Shown: positions 1 to 27,069 of the stretch, one piece after another
How positions within the stretch are numbered: the stretch's first letter is position 1
Layout: the number at the start of each line of letters is the position of its first letter
Assembly: GCA_964529175.1 (NCBI GenBank)
Contig: CAZGVO010000006.1
Span: 73,308-105,307, forward strand
Length of the DNA: 32,000 nucleotides
Direction: 5' to 3'
Origin: an uncultured Bifidobacterium sp.
Lineage (GTDB): Bacteria > Bacteroidota > Bacteroidia > UKL13-3
Program-made: the position numbers and the translations under genes
The notes under the pieces: generated by a model
Database searches by the model: none
The model's input: the letters and a program-made list of their open reading frames with translations, nothing else
Told to the model about the DNA's origin: nothing

Positions 1-2736
1 AGTGTGTCGGCTGCTACAAGTTATTGGACTGGGGCAAATGGAACAGGTTCACAATTAACATCACTTTCTATTAGCGATTTATATTTAAACATAGGAAGTA
101 ATGTAAGCACTTCGGGTGATTTTACGCTTTCAAATGGTTCTAAGTTTATAGTTAACAACGGGGGTAACTTAACTATTGCAAGTGGGAATATAATTTCAGG
201 TACAATAGATGTAGAAAATGGCGGTACTTTAACTTTAAATAGTACATCTATTCCAACTTTAGGCACACTAGGTAGCACTAGTACTATAATATTTGGTGCA
301 AATGGCGCGCAAGCAGTTACTACCAAAAATTATGGTAACTTAACCCTTAGTGGAGGTAATACCAAAACCATAAGTGGAGCTGCTGCGGTGAGCGGAGCTT
401 TAACTATTAATGGTACTGTATTAGCTTTGGGAAGCAACAATTTAACTCCAACCACTTTAACTTTAGACGGTTTAGGAACTAAAAATGATTCATGGGGTTC
501 TACAGCTGGTTCAGCTAATTATAAAAATGTATCTTATTTTGGTGCTACTGGCACAGGAACAGTAACTCCTAGTAGCAATACTGCTGCAACAGCAAGTTTT
601 AGTAATATTGCTACAAGCCAAAGTATTAATTATGGAACAGCTACTGTTTCATTAAGTGGTAAAGTTGCATCTGGCTCTATTTATCCTACTAATGGTGAAA
701 CAGTATCAGTAACCATTAATGGAGTAGCACAAACTACTACCACCACCAGTGGAGATGGTTCATTCTCTATCAATTATACTACTAGCACTTTACCAGTTTC
801 TGCATCACCTTACACCATTACTTATGCTTATACAGGTTCTGCAAATGGTTTTTTAAAGGCAGCAAGCAATGAAACAAGCACAGCTTTAACCGTAAATGCA
901 GCTACTAACAACTGGGTAGGTGGAACAGGCAATTGGAGCAGTACAAGTAATTGGAGCTTAAGCAGATTACCTTCTGCCCTAAACGATAATATTGTTATTA
1001 ACAGCGGAACCCCTACTATGGATGCAGACTATATAGTTGGTGCTGGAAGAACATTGACCATTAGTGGTACAGGTAGCTTGGTAATTAATGCTGGTAAATC
1101 AATTACCATTGATGGAACAGCAGATTTTGGTGGTAAATCAGTTACGCTTAAATCAACTGCTGTTGCTTCTGGCTCAATTGGAAAAATAACAGGAACTTTA
1201 ACAGGTGCTACCAATGTAACAGTTGAACGTTTTATAACTGGTCAATCAATTAGAGGTAGATGGAGATTTTTATCTAGCCCTGTTCAAGGCCAAACAGTAG
1301 CCAATTGGATGAACAGTTTTTATGTAACTGGTCCTGGCGATAGCATAGCTGCTAATGCAGTTAATGGCTCTACTTTAGGAACTACCAATACCAATGGTTT
1401 TAATACCAATTATGCTAATATTTTATATCCATCATCTACCATGTCTTCGGATGTTAGAAGTGTTAAAACTACTTCAATTAGAGTGTATGACGAAACAGTA
1501 ACTACTGGAGGAATTGATGGCGGTTGGGGTAATATAACTACAGCTACTACGCTAGATGCTGGCAAAGGATTTAGAGCCTATATTAGAGGAGATAAAAATG
1601 CAGTAAATTCAGCCCAAACGCAATTAGGAACTAGTGCCAATGGCAATATACAAGGAAGTGTAAATATTACCTTGACAGGAACTCCTAACCAAGGCGAGGT
1701 AAATGCCAACCCTACCTTTACCAGTTCAGGAACATTGGCAAACGATGGTTGGAATTTATTAGGAAATCCTTACCCATGTTCGTACGATTTTGTGGCTCAC
1801 AGAAATGCAGGTAGTTCAGTATTTAGTAATATAGACCCAACTGTATATGTTTATAGTGGAGTAACAGGTGGTTATGTAAGTTTTAATGCATTATCAAACA
1901 CCAACTTAAATTTAGATAATGGTATTATTCCGGCAGGTGCAGGTTTCTTTGTTAAAGCCAATGCCGCTAATCCAGTGTTTAAATTTCAAGAAGCATATAA
2001 AACTACCAATAACCATGTAGGTACTGGTGTGCATAAAACAGCTAAAACCGATGAGTTTGGAATTAAATATTATAAAGATTCTACTGAAAGCGATTATATA
2101 GTAGTTAAACCTTACCAAGGTGCTACTATGAATGCTGAAAATTTAGATATTATAAAAGTGCAAAACGATAATTTAAACTTATCGGCTTATGGTGCAGATT
2201 CTATATTATTAAGTGCAAGTTTAATACCACCAGTAATAGAGGAAACAAGAGTAAAATTAAATGTAGAAGCTACTGCAATAGGCACTTATAATTTTGATTT
2301 TAAAAACATGGATAATTTCCAAAGCGATATTACAGTTCATTTATTTGATAGATATACCAACAAAACCATTGATGTTAGAAAAAATACTAAGTACACTTTT
2401 AGTATGGGGCCGGGTACCAATCAGTGGGGTAAAAACCGTTTTGAGTTAATTTTAAATATGGATAAAACAGGAATAAATGAGTTTAATGTATTAAACAAAA
2501 CCCAAATGTTGGTTTACCCTAACCCTGCTACCGATGTGTTAAACATTGATATTAGCAATAGCAGTTTCAAAAACTCAGAAATAGTGGTTTATAATATTTC
2601 GGGAACCGAAGTAATAAAAACCAATATGGCTAGCAATAGTGTACAATTGAACATTGAAACATTAAGCGCAGGAGTGTATTTTGTAAAAGTAAGTAACCAA
2701 AATGGTTTTAATAAAACAGTAAAATTTGTAAAATAG
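1..2736 (+). CDS. Large secreted cell-surface repeat protein, 5'-truncated by the window edge, with a T9SS (Por) type-A C-terminal sorting domain
   Basis: The frame is open from nt 1, so the GTG at 4 is only an ORF-caller start. Composition is Thr/Ser/Gly/Asn-rich beta-strand repeats. The last ~80 aa (MLVYPNPATDVLNIDI...GVYFVKVSNQNGFNKTVKFVK) fit the Bacteroidota T9SS CTD pattern. The last ~500 aa are clearly paralogous to the C-terminus of 4768..10788 (VERFxxG..RWRFLSSPVQ, GWNLLGNPYPC, NQWGKNRFELILN). Confidence 0.85.
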   Translation, partial: SVSAATSYWTGANGTGSQLTSLSISDLYLNIGSNVSTSGDFTLSNGSKFIVNNGGNLTIASGNIISGTIDVENGGTLTLNSTSIPTLGTLGSTSTIIFGANGAQAVTTKNYGNLTLSGGNTKTISGAAAVSGALTINGTVLALGSNNLTPTTLTLDGLGTKNDSWGSTAGSANYKNVSYFGATGTGTVTPSSNTAATASFSNIATSQSINYGTATVSLSGKVASGSIYPTNGETVSVTINGVAQTTTTTSGDGSFSINYTTSTLPVSASPYTITYAYTGSANGFLKAASNETSTALTVNAATNNWVGGTGNWSSTSNWSLSRLPSALNDNIVINSGTPTMDADYIVGAGRTLTISGTGSLVINAGKSITIDGTADFGGKSVTLKSTAVASGSIGKITGTLTGATNVTVERFITGQSIRGRWRFLSSPVQGQTVANWMNSFYVTGPGDSIAANAVNGSTLGTTNTNGFNTNYANILYPSSTMSSDVRSVKTTSIRVYDETVTTGGIDGGWGNITTATTLDAGKGFRAYIRGDKNAVNSAQTQLGTSANGNIQGSVNITLTGTPNQGEVNANPTFTSSGTLANDGWNLLGNPYPCSYDFVAHRNAGSSVFSNIDPTVYVYSGVTGGYVSFNALSNTNLNLDNGIIPAGAGFFVKANAANPVFKFQEAYKTTNNHVGTGVHKTAKTDEFGIKYYKDSTESDYIVVKPYQGATMNAENLDIIKVQNDNLNLSAYGADSILLSASLIPPVIEETRVKLNVEATAIGTYNFDFKNMDNFQSDITVHLFDRYTNKTIDVRKNTKYTFSMGPGTNQWGKNRFELILNMDKTGINEFNVLNKTQMLVYPNPATDVLNIDISNSSFKNSEIVVYNISGTEVIKTNMASNSVQLNIETLSAGVYFVKVSNQNGFNKTVKFVK

Positions 2737-2805
2737 ACGAAGTGGTCGTTGAGCGGAGCCGAAACGCACACTTCGTCTGAAAGCTTTCGGACTTTGCTCA
2801 GTGTC
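2735..2805. repeat. Intergenic GC-richer hairpin element (REP-like), member of a dispersed family
   Basis: Perfect 10-bp inverted repeat AGACGAAGTG (2735-2744) / CACTTCGTCT (2769-2778) around a 24-nt loop GTCGTTGAGCGGAGCCGAAACGCA. It is followed by the palindrome GAAAGCTTTC (2779-2788) and GCTCAGTGTC (2796-2805). The same motifs recur at 13354-13408, 15128-15178, 16183-16199 and 27016-27069. Confidence 0.6.
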
Positions 2806-2830
2806 TATTAACCATTAACTAATCAACAAG

Positions 2831-3019
2831 ATGAAAAATATAACAAAAATAATAATGGCAGTAGCCATAGTAGTAGCAGTAAGTTTTGCAGCTAATGCAC
2901 AACCAGGCAGTGGTTCTGGAGGATTTGATGATGAACCGCAAGATGTGCCAGTAGATGGAGGAATAGTACTACTAGCAGCAGCGGGAGCTGCCTATGGGTA
3001 TAAAAAATTGAAAAAGTAA
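2831..3019 (+). CDS. 62-aa mini-protein: Sec signal peptide, Gly-rich linker and a PEP-CTERM/GlyGly-CTERM-like tail (DEPQDVPVDGG, hydrophobic stretch, KKLKK); copy A
   Basis: MKNITKIIMAVAIVVAVSFAANA|QPGSGSGGFDDEPQDVPVDGGIVLLAAAGAAYGYKKLKK. A paralog at 10881..11069 differs in the tail only by synonymous changes. A strong terminator follows directly (3037-3071). Confidence 0.8.
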   Translation: MKNITKIIMAVAIVVAVSFAANAQPGSGSGGFDDEPQDVPVDGGIVLLAAAGAAYGYKKLKK

Positions 3020-3036
3020 ATTTCCTTAAAACAATG

Positions 3037-3071
3037 AGAGGCTATCTTTTAATTAAGATAGCCTCTTTTTT
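3037..3071 (+). terminator. Rho-independent terminator closing the adhesin/mini-protein unit A
   Basis: Perfect 12-bp stem AGAGGCTATCTT (3037-3048) / AAGATAGCCTCT (3055-3066), followed by a T run. Confidence 0.85.
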
Positions 3072-3208
3072 ATGCCAATTATGTAGGTTATTTTTTATTT
3101 GTAGTTATAACACATTAAAGCTTATAAACTTAACTGTTATACTATTGTAAACACTACGTTTTTTGAGGGTTTCAGCATAATATTGCCCCATAATTTAGTA
3201 AATTACAC

Positions 3209-3454
3209 ATGTTACAAATAAAATACCTGTTCTTTTTTCTTGGAAGTTTTGCCATAGTATTTGTCAGTATTAATATTTTAAGAAAATTTACTAGTAAAAG
3301 GCAGTGTCCTTATTGCGGTAGTGCAACCGATTTAGAAAGAATAAAAAGTGCTTCTATTTTTAAATTAATACCTGCTATAAATGCCAAACACTTTGTTTGT
3401 TATAAATGTAATAGAAAGCATTACAGAATAGGTTCATCAGATTTAGATAAATAG
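3209..3454 (+). CDS. Small membrane-anchored zinc-ribbon protein (hypothetical)
   Basis: An N-terminal hydrophobic helix (LFFFLGSFAIVFVSINIL) is followed by two CxxC pairs (CPYC ... CYKC). I recognise no family. Confidence 0.4.
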   Translation: MLQIKYLFFFLGSFAIVFVSINILRKFTSKRQCPYCGSATDLERIKSASIFKLIPAINAKHFVCYKCNRKHYRIGSSDLDK

Positions 3455-3724
3455 TTTAATCAATTTTTTTGATTCTATAACAGTTCCAAATAAGGAGCAT
3501 AGGTTTTTTCGGGCATTGGTAATTAATATTTAGCAAATAAAAGCAATCGTTATGCTTTGAGTTTCTTCTTCCACTTTTCTCCAAATTATAGGCTAATACT
3601 GTTTTTTCTGCTTTTTTTGTAGAAAAACCATCACACTCACAAAAGTTTAGTAGCTAATTAACACCAAACAAGCATTTGTTTGCAAGGATTAGATTTTTAG
3701 GCAATTACAAATTTTGGCATATTG

Positions 3725-3740
3725 TTGCACATATGTGCAA
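3725..3740. promoter_or_regulatory. Perfect 16-bp palindrome TTGCACATATGTGCAA; candidate dimeric DNA-binding-protein site
   Basis: Read directly from the sequence. It lies 15 nt upstream of the 42-bp repeat array. Confidence 0.3.
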
Positions 3741-3754
3741 TGTATATAATAATG

Positions 3755-4006
3755 TCGTTTTAGTCGTTGCATCATGATGTAATCAATAATTCGGGTTCGT
3801 TTTAGTCGTTACATGATGATGTAATCAATAATTCGAGTTCGTTTTAGTCATTGCATGATTATGTAATTAATAATTCGGGTTCGTTTTAGTCGTTACATGA
3901 TGATGTAATCAATAATTCGGGTTCGTTTTAGCCATTACATGATGATGTAATTAATAAATCGATACTATTTTAGCTATTACATCAATTTGCAATTGATTTT
4001 ACACCT
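3755..4006. repeat. Tandem array of ~6 copies of a 42-bp unit, each carrying an internal palindrome
   Basis: Units start at 3755, 3797, 3839, 3881, 3923 and 3965, an exact 42-nt period. The consensus is TCGTTTTAGTCGTTACATGATGATGTAATCAATAATTCGGGT, with an internal TTACAT-GATG-ATGTAA inverted repeat. The last unit is degenerate. Confidence 0.9.
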
Positions 4007-4767
4007 TTTGGTAAGAACAGCAGCTTGTTTTAATTTTATAGAAAGTAAATTGATAGCAATAAAAGGAAGTTTTAAAAGGACAGCAGTTCATTTTATACCT
4101 ATGGAAATTGATATGATAATAATAGTAAGTAACTTTACACGTATAGCAGTTGATTTTTTGTCTTTATAAACTAATTTAATACTTATAGAATTTAGTTTTA
4201 CCTCAATAAAAGCTGATTTAACAATGCTATTAACCTAGTTGACAAATAAAAGTTGATTTATCATATTTACCTAAAACTATTTCTGCTTGCTTTTACATTT
4301 TCTCTTCCTTTTAAATCTTCAAATAGAGCAGGCATAATTGCATTTAGTATGTTTTAAATAGTTTCCTCAGCATCATTAACTTTTTTGCCACATTAGCGTC
4401 CTGTGTAATTCATGTTTTTGTTCAGCTAGTTTTAAAATTTTTAAGTTTATGGATATAATTTATTAAAAATAGTGTGTTGTATTAGCCGTAAAACTTTTTG
4501 CTTAAGTATTGGTTTTTAATTAAAACCATAAGCTTTTAGCAAAAAAGCCTAAAATGAATTGTAAAATTTTTTGAATTTGAGGTAATTAAAGTACTACATA
4601 GTTAAAAATTAATGCTACTTAATACAAAAAAACAGCCATTGGTAAAAAAAACAGTAAAAAAACAGGCAGAAAAATGACATTTAATTATTCATTAACATTT
4701 AAAACACACAAATATTTTTATTTTGCCTTCTTGAAATAAATTGAAAATAAACTAAACGGAAATATAT

Positions 4768-7700
4768 ATGATAACTAATGTTTTACAATTAAAAAACCAG
4801 CCTCCCACGCAAGGCAGAACTAGTATTTTTAAATACCTAAGCCTTTTGGCTATGGTACTATTTTTCGGATTGAACGGGGTGAAGGGGCAAACGTATAGCC
4901 AAATTACAACCTTAGTAGGGTTAGTTGATGGGGATTATTTGATAGTAGGAGATGGGGCTACTAATGATGGAATAATGTTGAACACTGTTGATGCAACACC
5001 CTATATTAACCGCACGACTGTAACTAACCCTGGTTCTTCAATAACAAGCGGTTTTACTTCGGCCAATGTTTTTCAGATAACAGTGGTCTCAGGTGATATT
5101 ACTATATACAACTCATCAGTTGGGTATGTTTCTTGGGGGCGTACTGGAAATACTGGAAATACTGCTAATTTTTTTAGTGGTACGGTTGCAAATTCTGAAA
5201 GATGGACTCCAACAGTTAGTAGCGGATTGTGGACATTGACTAATGTAGGAACAACCGCTAGAAGTTTACAGTGGAACAATTCTAACCCCCGATTTGCATG
5301 TTATACTAGCACACAAGTTAGGTTGAAACTTTATAAATTAGCCACTACAGCCCCACTTGCCCCAACAATTGGAACAATAACCCCAGGTAATCAACAATTA
5401 TCTGTAGCTTTTACAGCTGGTAGTGATGGCGGTTCTGCTATAACAACTTATAAATATTCAACAGACGGAGGAGCCACTTTTTTAACAAGACAAACTGGTA
5501 CAACTGCCTCTCCAATTATTATTACTACTTTATCATCAGATGGAACTACCCCACTTACAAATGGTGCAAGTTATAATGTTCAAATTAGAGCTGTTAATGC
5601 TATAGGAGATGGAACTGCTACCGCAAGCACGGCAGCTACTCCGTATACTACACCAAGTGCGCCTACTATAAATAGTGTAACCGCAGGAAACACGCAATTA
5701 TCGGTAGATTTTACTGCCAATGCTACAGGTGGTTCGGCTATTACTAATTACCAGTATTCAACAGACGGTGGCGCTACTTTTTTAAACCGACAAACAGGTA
5801 CAACTGGCAGTCCTATTGTAATTACAACTTTATCATCTAATGGTTCAACATCTTTAACAAATGGAGTAACATATGATGTACAAATAAAAGCTGTAAATGC
5901 TGCTGGAGCTGGCACAGCTTCTTCAACTGTGCAAGGAACTCCTGTGGCTCCTGTATCACCTACTTTAACTGTGTTGGGTTCATTAAGTGCTGTTAATACT
6001 ACTTACGGAACTGCTAGCGCTAGTCCCACAAGTTTTACAGTTAGTGGAGCTTCATTAACCAACGATATTGTAATTACTCCACCATCGGGTTTTGAGGTTT
6101 CAACTTCAATAGGTAGCGGTTACACAACAAGTTTAACATTAACTCAGAGTGGTGGAAGTGTAAGCACTACCACTGTTTATTTGCGTTTAGCTGCCACTAC
6201 TGGTTTTGGTACTTATAGTGGCAATATTGATGTAACAAGCACAGGTGCTGTTACTCAATCAGTAGCAACAGCAAGCAGTAGTGTAGCTAAAAAAGCATTA
6301 ACAATAACTGGAATAACAGTTGATAATAAAATTTATGATGGAACCACAACAGCTACTACTTCTGGCACAGCTGTGTATAGTGGGTTAGTAAATAGTGAAT
6401 CATTCACTGTTACTGATATAGTATCATTTGCTTTTGCAACCGCTTCAGTAGGTAATGGTAAAACCATTAACCAAACCGGAACATATACAGCGCCCTCGGT
6501 TAATTATTCAATAAGCCAGCCAACATTAACAGCTAATATTACAACAGCAACACCTCCAACTATTACACCTGCTTTAGGTACAACAGTTGATGGTTCATTT
6601 AACGTAACTTTTGTTGATGATGCTTTATGGCGTTCAGGCATTACAGGTATAACAGTTGGAGGAACAACATTAACTGCTGGTTATACTGTTTCTTCTGGCC
6701 AAATCGCTTTTAATCCAGCTGCATCAGTTCCTACTGGTTTATTACAAACGGCAGGTTCTAAAACAATTGTAGTTTCCTCAACAGGATATAGTAGCAATAC
6801 TTTTACACAAGCTATTGGAGTTGGAGCAACTACAAAATTAACTAATAACACAGCTCCTGCAGCCCCTGCCACCAATGGAGTGGTTTTAGCAACTCAGCCA
6901 AAGGTAAATATTACTGACCAATATGGTAATATTATTACAACTGATAATTCAACTGTAGTAACTGTAGCTGCCACGCAAGGTACTTGGACATTAGGGGGAA
7001 CTTTAACTGCAACTGCTGTAAATGGAGTAGCCTCATTTAGTGGGTTAACTGCTACAAGTGCTACAGCTATTACTGGTGCAAGTTTAGATTATACAGCTAC
7101 AGGTCTAGCCGGTTTTACATCTGCTACATTTAATATTCCTGCACCAGCACCAGCAAACGATTTGTGTGCAAGCGCAATTACATTAACTGTTGGCGCAGGT
7201 TCAACTGGTGGTAGTATGGATGGAGCAACCATGTCAAGTCCTTTTAACGATGATAATGATGTTTGGTTTAAATTTACAGCCACTTGTACTGGAACAGCAA
7301 CGGTTACTATTAGCACAACCAGTCAAGATATAGATTTAACGGCTTGGAGTACTTCGTGCCCTGCTGCCACTACTGGTAATATCGGAACAGGAGGAGGTAC
7401 TTCTTCTTTAACAACCGAAACACTAACAATTTCTGCAACTCAGGGAACAACTTATTTTGTTCGTGTTATTCATTATGCTGCTACTTCAGGTTCGGTTGCT
7501 GGTAGTTTTAACATTGCAGTTACTTCTTCAGTAAATTCTACTTTAGCTTTGGCTAATACAGGAACTCCAGCTGCAGGAAATATTTCAAATGGAACATCAA
7601 ATGTTACTTTATTTGGATTTAGCTTAACACCTTCGGCATGTAATAATATTAGCATTTCATCAGTTAGTATTACCACAGCAGGAACAGCAACAAGTTCAGA

Positions 7701-10700
7701 TTTATCAAATTTTAGATTATTATATGACGCAAATAGCAATGGAACTGCCGATGCCGGTGAAATTTCTTCACCAATTGGAACGGTAGCTAGTTTGTCAAAT
7801 CCTTTAGTTTTTTCTAGCTTAGCAGGTCAATCTTTTTCACCCTCTACTGTCAGAAGATACTTATTGATTGCCGATGTGGCTGCAAGCCCTACAGATGGTG
7901 TGACTTTTACTGGTTCATTATCAAATACAAATGTAACCTCAACAGCTACAGCAAGTTCCTCTGCAACTGGTAATGCACAAACTGTTATTATTCCAACTGT
8001 TCCTTTAGTTCCTACAATAAATTCAATAACTGGTGGTACAAATCAATTAAGTGTTGCTTTTACAGCAGGTGCTAATGGTGGAGCAAGCATTACTACTTAT
8101 AAATATTCAACAGATGGTGGAGCAACATTTAGAACAAGAGCTTCGGGATCTACTGCTTCTCCTTTAGTAATTACAACACTTTCATCTGATGGAACCACCC
8201 CATTAGTCAACGGAGTTACTTACGATGTACAAATTAGAGCAGTTAATTCGGTAGGAGATGGCGTTGCAAGCTCAACAACACAAGGTACACCAGTGCTGAC
8301 AAATACAACTGCAAAATTATGGAATTCTGCTGCTGGATCAGCATGGCTTACTTCAGGTAATTGGAACGGTGGTTTACCATCAAGCACTGAAGTTGCTCAG
8401 TTTGGTGGAAACCCAACCCCCGGCACAAGCGTTAATATTAATGGTGGTACAACAGCAATTTCGGCTATTGAGGTAACCAATTCAAGAATATTGAATTTGA
8501 CAATAGGCAATAATTCTGGTGGCGCAACTAATGGCACTCTAACCTTGAATGGAGGAGTTGTGAATAGTATAGAAAATATTATTATTAGAAATAATAGTGC
8601 TAATTTATTAACCTTACAAAATACTGGTTCTTCTGGAAGTGGTTCAAATACAATGAGTTTGGCTCTAGGAAACTCAACTAACAATATAATTAGTATTGAA
8701 GGTAATGGAGGTATTACTATTTCTTCTATAATTTCTGGTAGTTCAAGAAATTTAACTAAAATTGGCGCTGGTGCAGGTGTTTTAACATTAACTGGTGCAA
8801 ATACTTACTCAGGTATAACAACTGTATCAGCGGGTACTTTGCGCTTAAATAGGTCAGGAGGAACAACTATTCCTAATACAAACAATGTGGTTATAGATGG
8901 AGGAACTTTACAAGTAAGTAGTAATCAAACATTAAACGATTTAACATTAACAAGCGGCACTTTAATTATTGATGCAGGTGTAACTTTAACTATAAATGGT
9001 ACTATTACTAGAACTTCGGGTGTAATTAGAGGTTCTTCTACATCAAATTTGGTTATAACAGGTACATCAGGAACAATAGCTTTCGACCAAACAACACCAG
9101 GCACTACTAATTTACTTAGAAACTTAACCATTAGTGGTTCTGGTACAACTACATTAGGTAATGCATTAAACATAGTTGGTGGTTCGAGCGCAGGTATAGT
9201 AACAGTAGGAAGTGGTGCAACATTAGCAGCAGGAAATAACTTAACTTTAAAATCAGATGCAAACGGAACAGGTTCAATTGCTTCAAACAATAGTGGCTTA
9301 ACTTATATTACCGGTAACGTAACTGTAGAACGTTTTGTAAGTGGTGCAGGAAGAAGATGGAGATTTTTATCATCACCTGTTCAATCAGCAACTGTGGCTA
9401 ATTGGATGACATATTTTTACGTAACAGGTCCTGGCGATGGGGTAACTCTTGGAGTGCCAATGTCGACAGGCTGGCATGCCTCTAAAGCAAATATTGATTT
9501 TCCAAATAGTACTTTTGGTTCAGATCCAAGAAGTGTAAAAACCACTTCTATTAGAACTTACAATGAATCAGCAAGTGGTAATAATACCAATATTAATGCT
9601 GGTTGGGAAAATTTATCTGGTACAAATCAGGCTTTAACTCCTGGTCAAGGTTTTAGAGTATTTGTGAGAGGCGCAATAGGCACAACTGGTCAATTGGATG
9701 GTTCAGTAACTTCGCAGTCTTCAGTAATTTTAGCTTTAACAGGAGCAGTTAACCAAGGCGATGTTTCACCAACGATTACTAATAATACACAAGGTTGGAA
9801 TTTAATAGGAAATCCATATCCATGTGCTTATAATTTAAAAGCACAGTACGATGCAGCTCAAACTTCGAACATGAACAATATTGATGTAAATTATTACGTG
9901 TTTGACCCCAATACAAATGGCTATAAAGGGTATAATCCTGCAGCAAGTTCTGGCGCAGGTGCTGGAACGTTAACAAGTGGTATTATACCTTCTGGTACAG
10001 CATTTTTTATCCAAGCAACAGGCACACCAACTTTTGTTTTTAAAGAAACATTTAAAACCACTTCGGCACCTATTGCATTACACAAAAGTGCTTCAAATAG
10101 CGAATTCAGTATTAAATATTTTAAAGATTCAGCGGAAAGTGATGAGTACATTTTAAGCATGATGGGTACAGCTACTTTAAATAAAGATAGATATGATATT
10201 AGTAAATTAAGAAACGACAATTTAAATTTATCAAGCTATGGTGAAGATACATTACAGCTCATGTTATCGTCAATTCCTTTAGTAGATGGCGAAACACGCA
10301 TTAAATTAAATGTAGAAGCAACTCAAGTTGGAACCTACAAATTTGAGTTTAAAAACATAGAAAACTTTGATGCAGGAGTAAGTGTAAGTTTACTAGATAA
10401 ATACACCAATAAAACTACAAGTATAAAAGCCAATACGGTTTACAGTTTTGAAATGGGAGCAGGCGAAAACCAATGGGGTAAAAACCGCTTTGAATTGATA
10501 TTAAATGGAAAAGCTACAGGTGTAAATAATACCAATGCTGCAGAACAAGTAGCACAAATGTTGGTTTACCCAAATCCAGCAACAGATGTGTTAAACATTG
10601 ATATTAACAATGCTAACTTCAAAAACTCAGAGATTGTAATTTATAATATTTCAGGTACAGAAGTGTTAAGAAGCAATATGGCAAGCAACAGTGCTCAATT

Positions 10701-10788
10701 AAATATTGAAACATTAAGTGCAGGAGTATATTTTGTAAAAGTAAGCAACCAAAATGGCTTTAATAAAACAGTAAAATTTGTAAAATAG
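4768..10788 (+). CDS. Giant (2006 aa) T9SS-sorted mosaic adhesin-like protein: signal peptide, 3 FN3 modules, YDG domain, PPC-like domain, autotransporter-associated beta-strand (PATR) repeat, conserved pre-CTD region and T9SS CTD
   Basis: Signal peptide: FKYLSLLAMVLFFGLNGVKGQ. FN3-like modules of about 100 aa (..QLSVAFTAG.DGGS.ITTYKYSTDGGATF..........YDVQIRAVN..G.G) lie at about nt 5350-5645, 5645-5945 and 8000-8290. YDG motif: KALTITGITVDNKIYDGTT (about 6289-6350). PATR-like motif: LTKIGAGAGVLTLTGANTYSGITTVSAGTLRL (about 8751-8850). C-terminus: MLVYPNPATDVLNIDI...GVYFVKVSNQNGFNKTVKFVK. Confidence 0.92.
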   Translation: MITNVLQLKNQPPTQGRTSIFKYLSLLAMVLFFGLNGVKGQTYSQITTLVGLVDGDYLIVGDGATNDGIMLNTVDATPYINRTTVTNPGSSITSGFTSANVFQITVVSGDITIYNSSVGYVSWGRTGNTGNTANFFSGTVANSERWTPTVSSGLWTLTNVGTTARSLQWNNSNPRFACYTSTQVRLKLYKLATTAPLAPTIGTITPGNQQLSVAFTAGSDGGSAITTYKYSTDGGATFLTRQTGTTASPIIITTLSSDGTTPLTNGASYNVQIRAVNAIGDGTATASTAATPYTTPSAPTINSVTAGNTQLSVDFTANATGGSAITNYQYSTDGGATFLNRQTGTTGSPIVITTLSSNGSTSLTNGVTYDVQIKAVNAAGAGTASSTVQGTPVAPVSPTLTVLGSLSAVNTTYGTASASPTSFTVSGASLTNDIVITPPSGFEVSTSIGSGYTTSLTLTQSGGSVSTTTVYLRLAATTGFGTYSGNIDVTSTGAVTQSVATASSSVAKKALTITGITVDNKIYDGTTTATTSGTAVYSGLVNSESFTVTDIVSFAFATASVGNGKTINQTGTYTAPSVNYSISQPTLTANITTATPPTITPALGTTVDGSFNVTFVDDALWRSGITGITVGGTTLTAGYTVSSGQIAFNPAASVPTGLLQTAGSKTIVVSSTGYSSNTFTQAIGVGATTKLTNNTAPAAPATNGVVLATQPKVNITDQYGNIITTDNSTVVTVAATQGTWTLGGTLTATAVNGVASFSGLTATSATAITGASLDYTATGLAGFTSATFNIPAPAPANDLCASAITLTVGAGSTGGSMDGATMSSPFNDDNDVWFKFTATCTGTATVTISTTSQDIDLTAWSTSCPAATTGNIGTGGGTSSLTTETLTISATQGTTYFVRVIHYAATSGSVAGSFNIAVTSSVNSTLALANTGTPAAGNISNGTSNVTLFGFSLTPSACNNISISSVSITTAGTATSSDLSNFRLLYDANSNGTADAGEISSPIGTVASLSNPLVFSSLAGQSFSPSTVRRYLLIADVAASPTDGVTFTGSLSNTNVTSTATASSSATGNAQTVIIPTVPLVPTINSITGGTNQLSVAFTAGANGGASITTYKYSTDGGATFRTRASGSTASPLVITTLSSDGTTPLVNGVTYDVQIRAVNSVGDGVASSTTQGTPVLTNTTAKLWNSAAGSAWLTSGNWNGGLPSSTEVAQFGGNPTPGTSVNINGGTTAISAIEVTNSRILNLTIGNNSGGATNGTLTLNGGVVNSIENIIIRNNSANLLTLQNTGSSGSGSNTMSLALGNSTNNIISIEGNGGITISSIISGSSRNLTKIGAGAGVLTLTGANTYSGITTVSAGTLRLNRSGGTTIPNTNNVVIDGGTLQVSSNQTLNDLTLTSGTLIIDAGVTLTINGTITRTSGVIRGSSTSNLVITGTSGTIAFDQTTPGTTNLLRNLTISGSGTTTLGNALNIVGGSSAGIVTVGSGATLAAGNNLTLKSDANGTGSIASNNSGLTYITGNVTVERFVSGAGRRWRFLSSPVQSATVANWMTYFYVTGPGDGVTLGVPMSTGWHASKANIDFPNSTFGSDPRSVKTTSIRTYNESASGNNTNINAGWENLSGTNQALTPGQGFRVFVRGAIGTTGQLDGSVTSQSSVILALTGAVNQGDVSPTITNNTQGWNLIGNPYPCAYNLKAQYDAAQTSNMNNIDVNYYVFDPNTNGYKGYNPAASSGAGAGTLTSGIIPSGTAFFIQATGTPTFVFKETFKTTSAPIALHKSASNSEFSIKYFKDSAESDEYILSMMGTATLNKDRYDISKLRNDNLNLSSYGEDTLQLMLSSIPLVDGETRIKLNVEATQVGTYKFEFKNIENFDAGVSVSLLDKYTNKTTSIKANTVYSFEMGAGENQWGKNRFELILNGKATGVNNTNAAEQVAQMLVYPNPATDVLNIDINNANFKNSEIVIYNISGTEVLRSNMASNSAQLNIETLSAGVYFVKVSNQNGFNKTVKFVK

Positions 10789-10800
10789 ATAATAGTAAAT

Positions 10801-10840
10801 AGACCATGGACCATAGAAAGAAAAATATGGTCTATGGTTT
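10801..10840 (+). terminator. Stable hairpin between the giant gene and mini-protein B; possible partial terminator or attenuator
   Basis: 14-bp stem AGACCATGGACCAT / ATGGTCTATGGTTT (two G-U pairs) with a 12-nt A-rich loop. Only a short T stretch follows. Confidence 0.4.
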
Positions 10841-10880
10841 ACTTAATTAATAGACTAACTAAATTAACAAAACAAAGAAA

Positions 10881-11069
10881 ATGAAAAAGACAGTAAAATA
10901 TATAATGGTATTAGCTATAGCAACAGCAATTAGTTTTGCAGCACAAGCACAACCAGGCAGTGGAGGCGGAGGATTTGATGATGAACCACAAGATGTACCT
11001 GTAGATGGAGGCATAGTATTATTAGCAGCAGCAGGAGCTGCTTATGGTTACAAAAAATTGAAAAAATAG
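10881..11069 (+). CDS. 62-aa mini-protein, copy B (signal peptide plus PEP-CTERM/GlyGly-CTERM-like tail)
   Basis: MKKTVKYIMVLAIATAISFAAQA|QPGSGGGGFDDEPQDVPVDGGIVLLAAAGAAYGYKKLKK. Codons 30-62 are identical in protein to copy A but carry 11 synonymous nucleotide differences. Confidence 0.8.
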   Translation: MKKTVKYIMVLAIATAISFAAQAQPGSGGGGFDDEPQDVPVDGGIVLLAAAGAAYGYKKLKK

Positions 11070-11185: not shown

Positions 11186-11782
11186 ATGAAATTTTTAACT
11201 AAGCAGAGCAATATTTTATCTTTAGCGATACCCAAAATATCGTTAGGGCTTAAGAACCTATCAGTATCTACGCTGATGTTGGGTTTGCTGCTTGCATTCA
11301 CTCAATTGGTTAAGTTTATTGTACTTTTAGTACAAGAATATATCCAACTGAACGATCAATATGGTTTTGAGCAAGAAACCATTTCACGAACCTCTCAGTA
11401 TTACGTTTATAACTATATTAAGAACACGCGTAGACTAGAATCCAGTCACGAACTTACCACTACCGCTCAACAGCTGAGCGAGCAAATGTCGGAGCAAAAA
11501 TTGGTGTTCTTGGTTTTAGGTGTTTTATCAATAATAGGTTTTGTAATTCTTTATTTTGCTTTAGATTACCTAATTGATTTTACTAGAAGATATAGACCTT
11601 GGAGTATTTTGGTTCTTTTAATCGCATTCACAATCAGTGTAATTTATATTGAATTTATTGATTTACGTAGCAGTGGAAATGGATATGCATTTATGTTTAC
11701 TACATTAATCAGCATCATTACAGGTATTGTGCTTATAGGCTATTCCCTTATTTTTCCAAATTACACCAAACAAGTTGATTAA
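11186..11782 (+). CDS. Hypothetical multi-pass membrane protein
   Basis: About 4 hydrophobic segments. No recognisable family. The start codon is uncertain. Confidence 0.45.
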   Translation: MKFLTKQSNILSLAIPKISLGLKNLSVSTLMLGLLLAFTQLVKFIVLLVQEYIQLNDQYGFEQETISRTSQYYVYNYIKNTRRLESSHELTTTAQQLSEQMSEQKLVFLVLGVLSIIGFVILYFALDYLIDFTRRYRPWSILVLLIAFTISVIYIEFIDLRSSGNGYAFMFTTLISIITGIVLIGYSLIFPNYTKQVD

Positions 11783-13319: not shown

Positions 13320-13353
13320 TCAATGTCTATTAGTTAATGGAAATACATTTCGT

Positions 13354-13408
13354 CCGAAAGCTTTCTGTATTCGCTCAATGTTCGCGGCCGTTGAGCGAAG
13401 TCGAAACG
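13354..13408. repeat. Intergenic hairpin element of the same dispersed family
   Basis: CCGAAAGCTTTC (13354-13365); TCGCTCAATG (13371-13380) inverted against CGTTGAGCGAAGTCGAAACG (13389-13408). The latter matches 20 of 24 positions of the loop of element 2735-2805. Confidence 0.6.
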
Positions 13409-13438
13409 AATAAAAAGCCTTACCAAATCATATATTTA

Positions 13439-15969: not shown

Positions 15970-16245
15970 TTTGGCTAAAGCCAATTTTATTGCATTTTTC
16001 TTTTAACCCCCAGATAAATCTGTGGGCAATTCATCATTTGTTTTAACATCATTAAGGAATGATGAATTGCCACATGGCTTCAGCTTGTGGGAATAGAAAT
16101 GCAATTTCTCTTAACCCCAGATAAATCTAGGGTCAATTCATCGTTTGTTTCAACACCATTATCTAAAGATGAATTGCCACATGTTCCGAAAGCTTTCGCA
16201 TTAGCTTGTGGAATTGTAAGAATTAATCAATAGAAATGGGTTTCA
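15970..16245 (+). repeat. Two tandem ~120-bp multi-hairpin REP-like units (A: 15970-16089; B: ~16094-16245) upstream of the Y1 transposase
   Basis: Unit A contains TTGGCTAAAGCCAA, CCCCAGATAAATCTGTGGG, a perfect 14-bp inverted repeat GGCAATTCATCATT (16024-16037) / AATGATGAATTGCC (16057-16070), and CCACA...TGTGG. Unit B is a diverged copy. A third copy lies downstream of the gene. Confidence 0.85.
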
Positions 16246-16310: not shown

Positions 16311-16772
16311 ATGCCATTCATTAAAGTTTATATACATTTTGTTTGGAGTACTAAAAACAGAATTCCTTTTTTAAATAATAAAGAATTAAGAGTCAAGGTT
16401 TGGAATCACATAAAGGAAAATGCAAGAGAAAAAGGTATTTTTATTGATTTTATTAGCGGCTATTCCGACCATTGTCATTGTTTGATTTCATTAGGTTCCG
16501 ACCAAACCATTCAAAAAACAATTCAATTAATTAAAGGAGAATCATCTTTTTGGATTAACAAAGAAAATCTGATTGATGAGTCTGTTTTAAACAAATATGA
16601 TTCAAAATTTGAATGGCAAGATGAATATTTTGCTGTGTCTGTTTCTGAATCAATGTTAGATAAGGTCAGGAATTATATTAAGAACCAAGAGATTCACCAT
16701 CAAAACAAATTATTTCAAGAAGAATATGATGAATTTCTCTTAAAATATAATTTTCAAAAATTCAATGACTAA
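16311..16772 (+). CDS. IS200/IS605-family Y1 (HUH) transposase, RAYT-like (REP-associated tyrosine transposase)
   Basis: 153 aa. YIHFVWSTKNR opening, HUH motif DHCHCLI, and a catalytic-Tyr region FEWQDEYFAVSV. No tnpB follows, and REP-like hairpin units flank both sides. Confidence 0.85.
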   Translation: MPFIKVYIHFVWSTKNRIPFLNNKELRVKVWNHIKENAREKGIFIDFISGYSDHCHCLISLGSDQTIQKTIQLIKGESSFWINKENLIDESVLNKYDSKFEWQDEYFAVSVSESMLDKVRNYIKNQEIHHQNKLFQEEYDEFLLKYNFQKFND

Positions 16773-16777
16773 TTCTT

Positions 16778-16975
16778 TTGGCTAAAGCCAATTATATTGC
16801 ATTTTTCCTTTAACCCCAGATAAATCTGGGGGCAATTCATCATTTGTTTCAACACCATTAATGAATAATGAATTGCAGCATAGCTTTAGCCTGTGGATTT
16901 GTAAGAATCAATGAATAGAAATGGGTTTCAACCCATTTAATAAAAAAAGGCAATTATGGAATTGGCTTAAGCCAA
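16778..16975 (+). repeat. Third REP-like unit (C: 16778-~16935) plus an isolated head palindrome TTGGCTTAAGCCAA (16962-16975)
   Basis: Unit C aligns with unit A over about 120 nt with few mismatches and starts 6 nt after the transposase stop. It contains the 7-bp stem CCCCAGA-TAAA-TCTGGGG. It is in the same (direct) orientation as units A and B. Confidence 0.85.
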
Positions 16976-23653: not shown

Positions 23654-26404
23654 ATGAAAAAGTTTGTCCAGTTTTTGTTCCTAATTTTGGTAATTGCAAT
23701 TAATGCTAATGCCAGCAATATCAATAAACCTATATCTTCGCAATACGGTTTTATAGAAAACAAAGGACAAATAATTGATCAAAATAACAATCCAAACCCT
23801 AGTGTTTTGTACTTGTATAATGGCAATGGATTACGTGTGCAATTGCGAAAAGAAGGTTTTAGTTATGAAGTAATAAATACCATAAAAACGCCTAAAACCA
23901 TCATAGATAAAGTGCCTCATGGTAAGTTTGCTTCTCAAGTAGATTCGTTTGATATAACCTACCAAACACACAGAGTGGATATAAACTTTAAAGATGGAAA
24001 CAAAAATGCAGCACTAAAACCTTACCAACCTGCAAACGATTTTATAAACTACTACACCACAGGAACAAGTGAAGCAGGAGTAACCAATGTGCATCATTTT
24101 CAAAAAGTAGTGTACGAAAATGTGTATCCAAATATTGATATAGAATTTGTGTTGAACGATGCAGCTAACAAAGGGAAATTTAAATACAATTTTATAGTGA
24201 AACCCAATGGGAATTTGGCTGATATAAAACTAGCATTTTTAGGTGCAAACAGCACCAGTTTAAACCAAGCGGGTAATATATTAATAGAAACAACTTATGG
24301 AAACATAGAAGAAAATATTCCGTTAAGTTATGTTATAAATAATAACAATTCTCACAGCACCATCAAAGCTAATTTTACAGCACTTGACAATAATACTTAT
24401 GGTATAATAGCCGAAAACTATAACCATAACCAAACATTGGTAATAGACCCAACCAATTGGACTACTTATTACGGAGGGTCTAGTGTTGATTTTGGCTCAG
24501 GAATAGCAACGGATGCAACTGGTAATATATTAATAACAGGAAGCACAGGCACATTAGGACAGTCTGGCTCAACTAATGCAATAGCAACTGCTGGAGCACA
24601 CCAAACAACAATGGGTGGTGGTTCTGATGCTTTTATAGCCAAGTTTAATACAAATGGAATTATTCAGTGGGCTACTTATTATGGGGGGAGTGGTGATGAT
24701 TACGGTGATGGAATAGCAACAGATATCAATGGAAATGTAATAATAACAGGAGAAACTAGATCAAGCAATGCTATAGCAACTGTTGGAGCACACCAAACGG
24801 TATTTGGTAGCAGTATTTCAAGCAGTGATGCTTTTATAGCTAAGTTTGATAGCAGTGGAGTAAGACAATGGGCTACTTATTATGGAGGGAGTAATAATGA
24901 TAAAGGAAGTGGTATTGCAACAGATGCCAGTGGGAATATAATAATAACAGGGACAACTTCATCAACAAATGCTATAGTCACCGTTGGAGCGCACCAAACA
25001 ACTTTGGGGGGAGTTCCAGGATTTAATGGAGATGCTTTTGTTGTGAAGTTCAATAGCAATGGCGTAAGGCAATGGGCTACTTATTATGGAGGGAGTAATT
25101 CTGATGAAGGAAACGGAATAACAATAGATGTTGGAGGAAATATTTTAATAACAGGGTCAACTTTTTCACTAAATGCAATAGCAACTGTTGGAGCATACCA
25201 AACAGTGCTTGGTAGCAGCAGTAGCATGGGCGTTTATGATGCTTTTATAGCCAAGTTCAATAGTAATGGCGTAAGGCAATGGGCTACTTATTATGGAGGA
25301 AGTGATAATGAATTAGGAAATGGAATAGCAGCAGATGCCAATGGGAATGTTATTATTACAGGTCAAACAAGATCAAGCAATGCCATAGCAACTGTTGGAG
25401 CACACCAAACGGTATTTGGTAGCAGTAGTTCAAGCAATGATGCTTTTATAGCCAAGTTTAGTAGCAATGGATTAATGCAATGGGCTACTTATTATGGAGG
25501 GAGTCTTGAGGATAATGGAAGAGGAGTAATAACGGATGCCAATGGGAATGTACTGATAATTGGATTTACTAAATCAAGCAATGCAATAGCAACGATTGGT
25601 TCACGTCAATCAATATATGGCGGAGGAAATTATGATGCTTTTATAGTCAAGTTTGATACTAATGGCGTAAGGCAATGGGCTACTTATTATGGTGGGAGTT
25701 TTGAAGATAATGGAAGAGGAATAACAAAAGATGCCAATGAGAATATTATAATAACAGGATGGACTGCATCAACTAATGCCATAGCATCAATTGGTGCATA
25801 CCAAACATCTTTCGGTGGGGGCTTTGATGCGTTCATTGCTAAATTCAATTCCAACGGAACTTTACCAATAAAACTCATTTCATTTAATGCAACTTTAGTA
25901 AACGAAAAAGTAAATTGTATTTGGGAAACAGCATCAGAAATTAACAATGATTATTTTACCGTAGAAAGAAGCAAGGATGGCAATGGTTTTGAAGCTGTTG
26001 GAAATATAAAAGGACAAGGAAATTCAAACAGCAATATTCGTTACAGTTACACTGATAATAATCCTTTTAGAGGCATTAGTTACTACCGTTTAAAGCAAAC
26101 AGATTTTGATGGAAAATACACTTATAGCGAAATAAAAAAGGTAGGATTGGATAAAGAATTGGCGTCTAAAATTTCATTGTATTATGAAAATAATAATCCA
26201 ATAATTTCAATCAGCTCATTGGTTGAAAACAAAGTTGCTATTGAACTTATTAACTTGAACGGGATAAAGTTATTTACCAATGAACAGCCAATAATTAAAG
26301 GTGAAAATACTTTTGCTATTGATGGAAATATAACTCCAGGTTTGTATTTATTAAAAGTACAAATGGAAAATGAAGTGAAGTATTTTAAAGTTTGGATGAG
26401 GTAG
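23654..26404 (+). CDS. T9SS-sorted protein with a seven-repeat SBBP beta-propeller
   Basis: Signal peptide present. There are seven ~65-aa repeats W[AT]TYYGGS..D.G.GIA.D..GN..ITG.T.S.NAIAT.GA.Q......DAFI.KF...G (nt ~24458-25865). The C-terminal tail ...GLYLLKVQMENEVKYFKVWMR fits a T9SS CTD. Confidence 0.85.
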   Translation: MKKFVQFLFLILVIAINANASNINKPISSQYGFIENKGQIIDQNNNPNPSVLYLYNGNGLRVQLRKEGFSYEVINTIKTPKTIIDKVPHGKFASQVDSFDITYQTHRVDINFKDGNKNAALKPYQPANDFINYYTTGTSEAGVTNVHHFQKVVYENVYPNIDIEFVLNDAANKGKFKYNFIVKPNGNLADIKLAFLGANSTSLNQAGNILIETTYGNIEENIPLSYVINNNNSHSTIKANFTALDNNTYGIIAENYNHNQTLVIDPTNWTTYYGGSSVDFGSGIATDATGNILITGSTGTLGQSGSTNAIATAGAHQTTMGGGSDAFIAKFNTNGIIQWATYYGGSGDDYGDGIATDINGNVIITGETRSSNAIATVGAHQTVFGSSISSSDAFIAKFDSSGVRQWATYYGGSNNDKGSGIATDASGNIIITGTTSSTNAIVTVGAHQTTLGGVPGFNGDAFVVKFNSNGVRQWATYYGGSNSDEGNGITIDVGGNILITGSTFSLNAIATVGAYQTVLGSSSSMGVYDAFIAKFNSNGVRQWATYYGGSDNELGNGIAADANGNVIITGQTRSSNAIATVGAHQTVFGSSSSSNDAFIAKFSSNGLMQWATYYGGSLEDNGRGVITDANGNVLIIGFTKSSNAIATIGSRQSIYGGGNYDAFIVKFDTNGVRQWATYYGGSFEDNGRGITKDANENIIITGWTASTNAIASIGAYQTSFGGGFDAFIAKFNSNGTLPIKLISFNATLVNEKVNCIWETASEINNDYFTVERSKDGNGFEAVGNIKGQGNSNSNIRYSYTDNNPFRGISYYRLKQTDFDGKYTYSEIKKVGLDKELASKISLYYENNNPIISISSLVENKVAIELINLNGIKLFTNEQPIIKGENTFAIDGNITPGLYLLKVQMENEVKYFKVWMR

Positions 26405-26998: not shown

Positions 26999-27015
26999 TT
27001 CTTCAAGTTATAGCG

Positions 27016-27069
27016 AACGAAGTGAAGCAATCTCATTTTCTGTTAGTTTAAAAATTGCTTCACTTCGTT
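27016..27069. repeat. Perfect 16-bp-stem hairpin (terminator-like), related to the dispersed CGAAGTG elements
   Basis: AACGAAGTGAAGCAAT (27016-27031) / ATTGCTTCACTTCGTT (27054-27069) with a 22-nt loop. It starts 18 nt after the RhuM-fragment stop. Confidence 0.7.

Follow-up and report, generated by a model that had tools for sequence, protein, structure and literature searches.

Genes for exosortase-type mini-proteins follow genes for a class of type IX secretion system adhesins in Bacteroidota

Gene pairs at the locus

We analyzed a 32,000-nucleotide (nt) stretch of DNA (hereafter, the window) deposited under the name of an uncultured Bifidobacterium sp. and placed by GTDB in the Bacteroidota (Bacteroidia; UKL13-3). 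It spans positions 73,308 to 105,307 of the forward strand of contig CAZGVO010000006.1 in NCBI GenBank assembly GCA_964529175.1. Within 11 kb it encodes two pairs of genes, modules A and B. Each pair consists of a gene for a large adhesin that is type IX secretion system (T9SS) cargo, followed on the same strand by a gene for a 62-amino acid (aa) mini-protein, here called a mini. The coding flanks of the two modules share 80-86% identity at the DNA level. A preliminary description of this DNA had reported a duplicated two-gene module; the duplication is real, and all of the coordinates given for it hold. Here we identify the minis as members of a curated sorting-tag family, and find that genes for such minis sit almost exclusively behind adhesin genes that share one particular C-terminal module.

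Mini-proteins

Minis A and B are identical at 51 of 62 residues (82%). Both match the NCBIfam model NF046080 (PID-CTERM) on residues 39-62 of 62, with scores of 42.3 and 42.5 bits (cutoff 26). Residues 1-23 form a signal peptide, judged by inspection from its basic n-region, hydrophobic core and A-x-A|Q site, with the predicted cut at ANA|QPG. An acidic, Gly/Pro-rich stub of 15 residues follows (residues 24-38; QPGSGGGGFDDEPQD; consensus of the two minis QPGSG(S/G)GGFDDEPQD). The PID-CTERM sorting signal (residues 39-62) occupies the extreme C-terminus and is made up of VPVDGG, a transmembrane helix (IVLLAAAGAAYGY) and KKLKK. Across an alignment of 48 mini homologues, the A-Q-P-G at the predicted cut does not vary, and in the mini clade of the window there is little or no variation in the F-D-D-E-P of the stub or the P-x-D-G-G of the tag. 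From these family matches and motifs we identify the minis as PID-CTERM (NF046080/PF28310) sorting-domain proteins, that is, as a predicted substrate of the exosortase type rather than any known component of the T9SS. The preliminary description had recognized that the minis are conserved, but missed the signal peptide and PID-CTERM tag that identify them. The tag itself is a curated family and not a new kind of element.

The pattern of nucleotide differences between the two mini genes is strongly partitioned. Across the 39 codons of stub and tag there are 12 synonymous differences and 1 non-synonymous difference, as opposed to 2 synonymous and 10 non-synonymous differences in the 23 codons of the signal peptide. 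Given the curated family match and the synonymous excess in stub and tag, the mini open reading frames (ORFs) are real genes, under strong purifying selection on these two parts.

A search of 5.8 billion proteins returned 127 mini homologues, all of 56-97 aa and all with PF28310. Protein P0001, which is identical to mini B, carries PF28310; the exact sequence of mini A had no match in the protein collection searched. Searched as a profile against 1.84 billion cluster representatives, the family gave 867 clusters at E<=0.001. Among the best 150 of these, 145 are <=101 aa and most match from the signal peptide through the basic tail. Based on these lengths, we conclude that the mini-protein is the usual form of the family rather than a truncation. 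One database protein (P0202, 409 aa) has the start of the adhesin module described below (RWRFLSS...YVTGPGDG) running straight into a stub and PID-CTERM tail; either a natural deletion has joined adhesin to mini here, or the assembly is at fault. In the literature searched we found no paper on PID-CTERM, XrtX or XrtY.

Adhesins and the A2 module

Adhesins A and B can be aligned over their C-terminal parts only (residues 350-911 of A versus 1451-2006 of B; 301/587 identical, 51%; E=1e-168), and upstream of this shared block their N-terminal regions gave no alignment. The block comprises ~560 C-terminal residues and consists of a module of ~455 aa, which we refer to as A2, and the T9SS C-terminal domain (CTD) that it precedes. 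Both large proteins are T9SS type-A CTD cargo. The two adhesins match TIGR04183 with 56.8 bits (cutoff 23) and PF18962 with ~57 bits (cutoff 27); the other CTD match is to type C only and falls below cutoff, and neither domain classifies as type B. Adhesin B has a plausible signal peptide (residues ~20-40, ...GVKG|QTY), the N-terminus of adhesin A being outside the window. The passenger part of adhesin B contains fn3, YDG and Shr-like HID domains and PATR repeats (Pfam and NCBIfam).

The A2 region is without a Pfam or NCBIfam model in a scan of the window adhesins. In 48 database homologues of A2, the precomputed Pfam matches, which derive from a release that already contains PF28310, fall on PF18962 or on unrelated N-terminal domains, and none falls on A2. 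The homologues range from ~450 to >3400 aa in length, and A2 directly precedes the CTD in every one. For the last 540 aa of adhesin B, AlphaFold2 gave a confident model (predicted local distance difference test, pLDDT, 81.8) with nearly all-beta structure. Its CTD resembles solved T9SS CTDs in the PDB (8qb1 and 8glk; target-normalised TM-score 0.76-0.80). A Foldseek comparison of the A2 fold with the PDB yielded generic beta-sandwich matches only (query-normalised TM-score ~0.12) and nothing informative.

The alignments and domain content support an arrangement in which a conserved A2 + CTD block carries variable N-terminal passenger regions. The contrast drawn in the preliminary description, between passengers that differ and a conserved last ~500 aa together with conserved minis, is borne out by the 51% C-terminal identity and the unalignable N-terminal parts.

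No T9SS machinery genes were identified in the window. Two further CTD proteins are encoded there (23654-26404 and 29035-29736), and because of these the genome is implied to have a working T9SS. The first of the two has a DUF7948 domain and SBBP beta-propeller repeats, is encoded by six tandem ~200-nt DNA repeats and has no mini downstream.

Table 1. Coordinates of the features of modules A and B in the window, and xrtF operon loci in other genomes and metagenomes.
Feature	Source	Coordinates	Strand	Support
Adhesin A, 5' end beyond window edge, 911 aa visible	Window	1..2736	+	ORF
A2 region of adhesin A, ~455 aa	Window	1114..2478	+	A2 alignment; local hidden Markov model match E=4e-195
T9SS type-A CTD of adhesin A	Window	2512..2733	+	TIGR04183 on residues 838-911
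Spacer A, 94 nt	Window	2737-2830	+	
Hairpin in spacer A, long, imperfect	Window	~2741-2809	+	Minimum free energy (MFE) -28.1 kcal/mol, z -2.5
Mini-protein A, 62 aa	Window	2831..3019	+	ORF; NF046080 42.3 bits
Intrinsic-terminator-like hairpin and T run, closing module A	Window	3036..3073	+	z -5.3
Adhesin B, 2006 aa	Window	4768..10788	+	ORF
A2 region of adhesin B	Window	9166..10530	+	A2 alignment; AlphaFold2 model
T9SS type-A CTD of adhesin B	Window	10564..10785	+	TIGR04183 on residues 1933-2006
Spacer B, 92 nt	Window	10789-10880	+	
Hairpin in spacer B, 16-bp stem	Window	10800-10841	+	MFE -23.1 kcal/mol, z -6.2
Mini-protein B, 62 aa, architecture as in mini A	Window	10881..11069	+	ORF; NF046080 42.5 bits
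198-aa membrane protein, possible accessory gene of module B	Window	11186..11782	+	Four hydrophobic segments (by inspection)
xrtF operon	L058	371-8876		
xrtF operon	L047	221-9314		
xrtF operon	L154	3182-11348		
Further xrtF operon loci with A2 adhesin and mini	L104, L113, L127, L135, L147, L152, L159, L167, L168, L170, L178			

Conservation of the gene pair in Bacteroidota

Minis of the window's clade that could be traced to contigs all lie directly downstream, and on the same strand, of a Por_Secre_tail gene with a full A2 (9/9). They are 100-200 nt from the A2+CTD gene or abut it, and the adhesins encoded there range from 453 to >3400 aa. Of two further, more divergent PID-CTERM minis that could be traced, one follows a CTD-type tail on a short contig. 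Thus 10/11 of the minis traced independently lie behind a T9SS gene and one is alone; this stand-alone mini (P0207) rules out a rule that every mini follows an A2 gene.

We then considered the pairing from the side of the adhesins. A scan of one genome per GTDB species, made with the A2 alignment without the CTD, identified 80 loci in Bacteroidia metagenome-assembled genomes (MAGs), Cytophagales, Chitinophagaceae, Hymenobacter and Cytophaga. A mini, recognized by its signal peptide and sorting tag, is encoded directly downstream in 37/81 of the A2 genes with enough downstream DNA. None of the 10 non-A2 CTD genes in those loci has a downstream mini, and every mini-like ORF there with visible upstream sequence follows an A2 gene. 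The reverse dependence, by which a mini implies an A2 adhesin, is nearly complete. The presence of a mini is also strongly clade-specific among A2 proteins: in the A2 identity matrix, 72/89 nearest neighbours share mini status, for which 44.2 +/- 5.7 would be expected and which 0/2000 permutations reach. Minis are present in 9/10 and 9/11 members of the two A2 subclades nearest to the proteins of the window. Other A2 subclades, uniformly without a mini, are likely paralogous lineages.

In support of the preliminary description, the same gene order in several Bacteroidota orders shows the pair to be a conserved unit and not a local accident. That description had also raised the possibility that the C-terminal block always travels with a mini, and had held that adhesins which lack the mini as often as not would speak against a unit. 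Over A2 as a whole the block does not always have a mini, and numerically the mini is indeed lacking that often; in the lineage of the window the association holds, and the lack is not of this order. We found no description in the literature of such a near-exclusive coupling of tag-only proteins to one class of T9SS cargo.

Some loci have additional small genes beside the pair. In L026, L029, L031, L033, L036, L068 and L071, acidic low-complexity proteins of 168-206 aa are encoded directly after the A2 gene, in the place of the mini. They end in a PID-CTERM-like tag, and in L029 and L068 a 58-aa mini then follows. A ~190-aa protein with four hydrophobic segments is encoded directly after the mini in four loci (window 11186-11782; L005 10357-10917; L013 2013-2591; L023 6732-7343). 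The member in the window, of 198 aa, has no Pfam or NCBIfam family.

Spacers and transcription

In 31/42 homologous pairs, the mini gene begins -7 to +46 nt from the adhesin stop, and several of these pairs overlap by 1-7 nt. Given these short or overlapping gaps, co-transcription, as the preliminary description had proposed, is the default expectation and likely, and translation of the two genes is probably coupled. That description had argued from the lack of a TAnnTTTG promoter box. The motif is absent from both spacers, as reported, and from the last 330 nt of either adhesin gene. It is likewise absent from the 1.3 kb upstream of adhesin B, so its absence says little and is not diagnostic. 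Of the sequence said to be shared upstream of both mini genes, TAACTAA is present before both ATGs, but AACAAG is exact in A only and is AACAAAG in B.

Spacers A and B are not alignable with each other at the DNA level. Spacers of 92-204 nt are confined to the clade of the window, where hairpins occur in 9/9, the two of the window included (z -1.9 to -11.3). These hairpins begin a few bases past the adhesin stop and differ in sequence. For hairpin B, 0/200 shuffles were as stable. Two identities were considered and rejected: intrinsic terminators, as there are no terminator calls in spacer A or B, and known RNA families, as Rfam gave 0 matches in the window at gathering score. Two arm modules of hairpin A (2745-2805) recur with their order swapped in the intergenic region at 13345-13410. 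We read the spacer hairpins as probable insertions like the repetitive extragenic palindrome (REP) and not as part of a conserved design; they may tune relative mRNA stability and adhesin-to-mini expression. The hairpins noted in the preliminary description are real, but they are not a conserved feature of the module, being limited to one clade, unlike in sequence and without an Rfam family. Its terminator after mini A is confirmed and has a 13-bp stem with 5 GC pairs (3036-3067), then TTTTTT. A further strong intergenic hairpin is located at 27007-27078 (z -4.1).

Association with exosortase genes

Genes for an exosortase and its partner adjoin the substrate gene in loci outside the window, namely L085, L039, L041, L047, L058, L060, L077, L078 and 11 metagenome loci. 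In Cytophaga aurantiaca DSM 3654 (L085, 3789-8090), the genes encode an A2 adhesin, a 66-aa PID-like mini, a 198-aa exosortase-family protein and a VanZ-like protein. The exosortase-family protein matches TIGR04178 (39.3 bits, cutoff 23) and PF09721 and is nearest to XrtY, below the XrtY cutoff. We considered the 198-aa protein encoded after mini B as the missing exosortase of the window and rejected it: hhalign against the exosortase of L085 gave a probability of 0.2, there are no conserved Cys/His, and it has no Pfam or NCBIfam match.

Pairs in Cytophagales occur within the xrtF exosortase operon. In Dawidia cretensis (L058) and a Flammeovirgaceae MAG (L047), one operon encodes XrtF, an XrtF-associated protein, an aminotransferase, the A2 adhesin, the mini and a dehydratase. 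XrtF scores above cutoff in both (131-136 bits, cutoff 90), and the partner membrane protein is TIGR04127. The aminotransferase is of the LegC/PseC type, the dehydratase is membrane-bound and of the PseB/CapD type, and the mini motif is DPDVPITG[IL]E. Five more genome loci have xrtF and the partner gene upstream of an A2 gene. Also encoded in L154 are a small polyprenyl-phosphate glycosylphosphotransferase and a NeuD/PglB-type acetyltransferase. With the aminotransferase and the dehydratase of L058, this set of enzymes resembles, in our reading of the annotations, a bacillosamine-type 4-amino sugar pathway.

The arrangement recurs in an independent metagenome sample, in which contigs were drawn with XrtF alone (four XrtF sequences). 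Among the xrtF loci with >=9 kb downstream, 10/12 have an A2 gene 0.6-2.2 kb after xrtF and then a PITG[IL]E mini, placed from a 4 nt overlap to 12 nt past the A2 gene. A thirteenth, shorter xrtF locus has the same arrangement. In the XrtF-linked minis (58-72 aa), a signal peptide is followed by a Pro/Gly/Asp stub and then by a DPDVPITG[IL]E tag. They fall below all NCBIfam cutoffs, the best match being PID_CTERM with 13-18 bits versus a cutoff of 26. The motif class of the mini tracks the class of exosortase, DPDVPITG[IL]E occurring with XrtF and P[VIL]DGG elsewhere. We suggest the XrtF-linked minis as a class of candidate substrates of XrtF; for their location within xrtF operons we found no description in the literature. 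XrtX is a candidate enzyme for PID-CTERM through the adjoining accessions NF046080-NF046082 only, a link taken from the numbering and not from the model descriptions.

Genetic data are available for XrtF in Flavobacterium johnsoniae, where it is needed for biofilm formation and surface colonisation. Deletion of xrtF or of its partner Fjoh_1449 leads to loss of biofilm and zorb formation, as do deletions of porU and porZ, which encode T9SS attachment components (PMC10936215). Deletion of a small hypothetical gene, Fjoh_0651, phenocopies that of xrtF and is complemented by a 434-bp fragment that includes the promoter (PMC10936215). Fjoh_0651 might be a mini of this kind. The substrates of XrtF are stated as not known (PMC10936215; bioRxiv 10.1101/2024.12.02.626408). 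Exosortases have been proposed to cut near the motif, leaving the helix in the inner membrane, and to attach the new C-terminus to a compound yet to be identified, perhaps a sugar that bears an amino acid (PMC7468200).

Other features of the window

A 42-nt tandem repeat (4.9 copies, 90% match) is present at 3755-3961, in the AT-rich gap of 1.3 kb that precedes adhesin B. Each unit contains the palindrome TTACAT...ATGTAA, and the array could be one that binds a regulator. Also encoded is a Y1 transposase of the IS200/IS605 type (16311-16772; NF033573, 62.8 bits), for which a match to REP-associated tyrosine transposases is sub-threshold. The gene is flanked by three copies of a ~95-nt repeat (15996-16090, 16103-16197 and 16802-16896).

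Proposed function

The function that we propose starts from the identities of both genes, the selection on stub and tag, the gene order and the exosortase operon link in other lineages. It proceeds by analogy with the PEP-CTERM/exosortase, PGF-CTERM/archaeosortase and GlyGly-CTERM/rhombosortase systems. We propose that an exosortase processes the mini to an anchored peptide and that this peptide acts together with the A2 module of the adhesin, and give this a probability of roughly 0.6. The first gene would encode a very large surface protein with a Sec signal peptide, a variable passenger, A2 and a type-A CTD, exported by the T9SS. The second would encode a 62-aa pre-protein that is exported by Sec and loses its signal peptide at A-x-A|Q-P-G. 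After export, the mini would be held in the inner membrane by its C-terminal helix until a small exosortase, presumably encoded elsewhere in this genome, cuts it at PVDGG and transfers the short acidic stub to an acceptor in the envelope; from this we infer an anchoring role. Because the xrtF operons carry genes like those of a bacillosamine-type pathway, the probable acceptor is an amine borne by a lipid or glycan. The N-terminal Gln of the stub is likely cyclised, by analogy with the Q-rule for cyclisation of N-terminal Gln in Bacteroidota (PMC5837995), which would give pGlu-PGSGGGGFDDEPQD(VP..). In what is the most speculative step, the tiny anchored peptide would serve as a surface retention or docking partner of the A2 module. 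Such a partnership would explain why only A2-bearing T9SS proteins have minis. In the clade of the window, a hairpin inserted past the adhesin stop may adjust the relative expression of both genes. The export or anchoring cassette with variable passengers envisaged in the preliminary description was partly right, although it gave the spacers too much weight and overstated the regularity of the mini.

Several observations weigh against an exosortase-processed partner of A2. There are no exosortase genes in the window, and within 10 kb of the other PID-type pairs there is none except in L085, so that in this genome the link between enzyme and substrate rests on family naming and analogy. A downstream mini is lacking for 44/81 A2 genes, and A2 can thus work without an adjacent one. 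Conversely, P0207 (L180, 6720-6896) is a stand-alone PID-CTERM mini with no T9SS gene directly upstream; it lies between two opposite-strand housekeeping genes, and 3 kb separate it from the nearest T9SS gene, which is encoded on the other strand. The mature stub is without lysine, and with its Gln cyclised it is disfavoured as a simple amine acceptor for the T9SS sortase (PorU). Finally, the hairpins right past the adhesin stops could end part of the transcripts.

A wider version of the proposal takes the minis that consist of signal peptide and tag as the missing substrates of the short Bacteroidota exosortases, DPDVPITG[IL]E for XrtF and PID for XrtX and XrtY. Once joined to an amino-sugar-bearing envelope glycolipid, they would form the fixing site for A2 adhesins, with two sorting systems, exosortase and T9SS, working in relay on the anchoring of one adhesin. 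This version is doubtful, and we offer it tentatively.

Of the alternatives to an exosortase-processed A2 partner, the one that survives best makes the mini a dedicated T9SS accessory factor, which would stay unprocessed in the membrane and aid export, CTD cleavage or anchoring with no exosortase involved, in the manner of the PorP/SprF-like partners encoded beside type-B CTD cargo. The strict, same-strand order of T9SS gene and mini fits such a factor, as do the PID-type pairs without an exosortase nearby, and Fjoh_0651 and T9SS attachment mutants of F. johnsoniae share a phenotype (PMC10936215). However, the C-terminus of the mini matches a curated exosortase-type sorting signal above cutoff, the pairs in Cytophagales and Cytophaga share an operon with an exosortase, and the class of motif tracks the class of enzyme. 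The CTDs are, moreover, of type A, which is not known to require a private partner. We regard an accessory factor as unlikely.

The dependence could also run the other way, with the adhesin serving the peptide. The exosortase would join the stub covalently to A2, or A2 would bind the stub in the periplasm, and the T9SS would take the peptide through the outer membrane. For exosortase products no outer-membrane route is known (PMC7468200), minis are linked to A2-bearing cargo only, and the place of A2 directly before the CTD is constant, all of which this scheme would accommodate. The A2 paralogues without a mini are common, however, and we consider the scheme improbable.

A third possibility moves the functional core to the structured spacers, as a regulatory RNA (attenuator, riboswitch or processing site) that controls translation of the mini. 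Both spacers of the window have a significant hairpin (z -2.5 and -6.2), and hairpins occur throughout the 92-204 nt spacers of its clade (9/9). Against this, most lineages are without any spacer, hairpins A and B are unrelated in sequence and have neither an Rfam match nor a terminator call, and at 13345-13410 there is a second copy of the hairpin A arms, as would be expected of a REP-like mobile repeat. A regulatory core in the spacers is, to us, very improbable. The idea that the pairing is a neutral by-product of local tandem duplication with no functional coupling accounts for the presence of both copies in 11 kb, 80-86% identical in DNA at their 3' ends, but it is already contradicted by the comparative data and barely credible. 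The same order, its genes abutting or overlapping, is found in Bacteroidia MAGs, Cytophagales, Chitinophagaceae, Hymenobacter and Cytophaga. The many synonymous differences between the mini genes suggest a non-recent event, yet the mature mini is nearly invariant.

Implications

The gene pair bears on two open questions, namely the targets of the short exosortases of Bacteroidota and the surface retention of T9SS type-A cargo outside the paradigm of anionic lipopolysaccharide (A-LPS) in Porphyromonas. It offers a widely conserved candidate substrate that is little beyond a signal peptide and a sorting tag, and a candidate client, the T9SS proteins with one unmodelled 455-aa module. Genes of 60 aa of this kind are easily missed or annotated as hypothetical. 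Dawidia, Chryseolinea and Cytophaga aurantiaca are culturable carriers of operons in which enzyme, substrate and client occur together. The pairing is thus a testable lead on how Bacteroidota fix adhesins to their surface.

Comparison with known systems

The closest relatives of the minis of the window are the members of the PID-CTERM family (NF046080, PF28310), with which they share the motif, helix and basic tail at the C-terminus as well as the N-terminal signal peptide. We found no description of the members of this family as being nearly all mini-proteins behind one T9SS class. XrtX (NF046081) and the XrtX-associated membrane protein (NF046082) are tied to the family by adjoining accessions and names only, and XrtX is not encoded in the window.

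A related system is that of PEP-CTERM and exosortase A (EpsH). The two have in common a tripartite C-terminal signal (motif, transmembrane helix and basic cluster), an inner-membrane sorting enzyme of the Cys type and an association with polysaccharide-biosynthesis genes. The cargo of PEP-CTERM systems is often low-complexity and rich in Gly/Ser/Thr, and the hosts are exopolysaccharide-producing Gram-negative bacteria. Unlike PEP-CTERM proteins, the minis carry P-[VIL]-D-G-G or P-I-T-G-[IL]-E in place of P-E-P. The enzymes here (XrtF, XrtX and XrtY) are short forms of ~170-200 aa, the cargo is a stub of ~15 residues, and the substrate gene is tied to a gene for T9SS cargo.

The XrtF (TIGR04128) and TIGR04127 system of F. 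johnsoniae involves the same enzyme family that is found in the operons of A2 adhesin and mini in Cytophagales and metagenomes, and its mutants share phenotypes with T9SS attachment mutants (PMC10936215). It differs in that the minis of the window are of the PID type and not PITG[IL]E, and the window is without xrtF.

In the archaeosortase A/PGF-CTERM system, the C-terminal helix is cut off and a lipid-type anchor takes its place. The same exchange of helix for lipid-type anchor is described for rhombosortase/GlyGly-CTERM (PMC7468200). Both differ from the pairs studied here in enzyme family and motif, and their substrates are full-size proteins and not mini-proteins. In Porphyromonas gingivalis, PorU cleaves off the C-terminal signal and attaches the cargo to an amine of the A-LPS glycolipid, the product of an amino-sugar pathway (PMC4560394, PMC7468200). 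The xrtF operons are similar in carrying aminotransferase, dehydratase, acetyltransferase and phosphoglycosyl-transferase genes. Their sugar genes, however, are of the bacillosamine or legionaminic-acid type and not Wbp/Vim, the stub is without an obvious free amine, and we found no evidence for a link between PorU and the minis.

The gene order resembles that of sprB-sprF. There, cargo with a type-B CTD is accompanied by a gene for a PorP/SprF-like partner, which secretion or anchoring at the surface presumably requires. Like that pair, each module of the window combines a large T9SS surface protein with a dedicated small partner gene directly after it. Unlike that pair, the CTD in the window is of type A (TIGR04183), and the partner is a 62-aa protein of the exosortase-substrate type in place of an outer-membrane beta-barrel.

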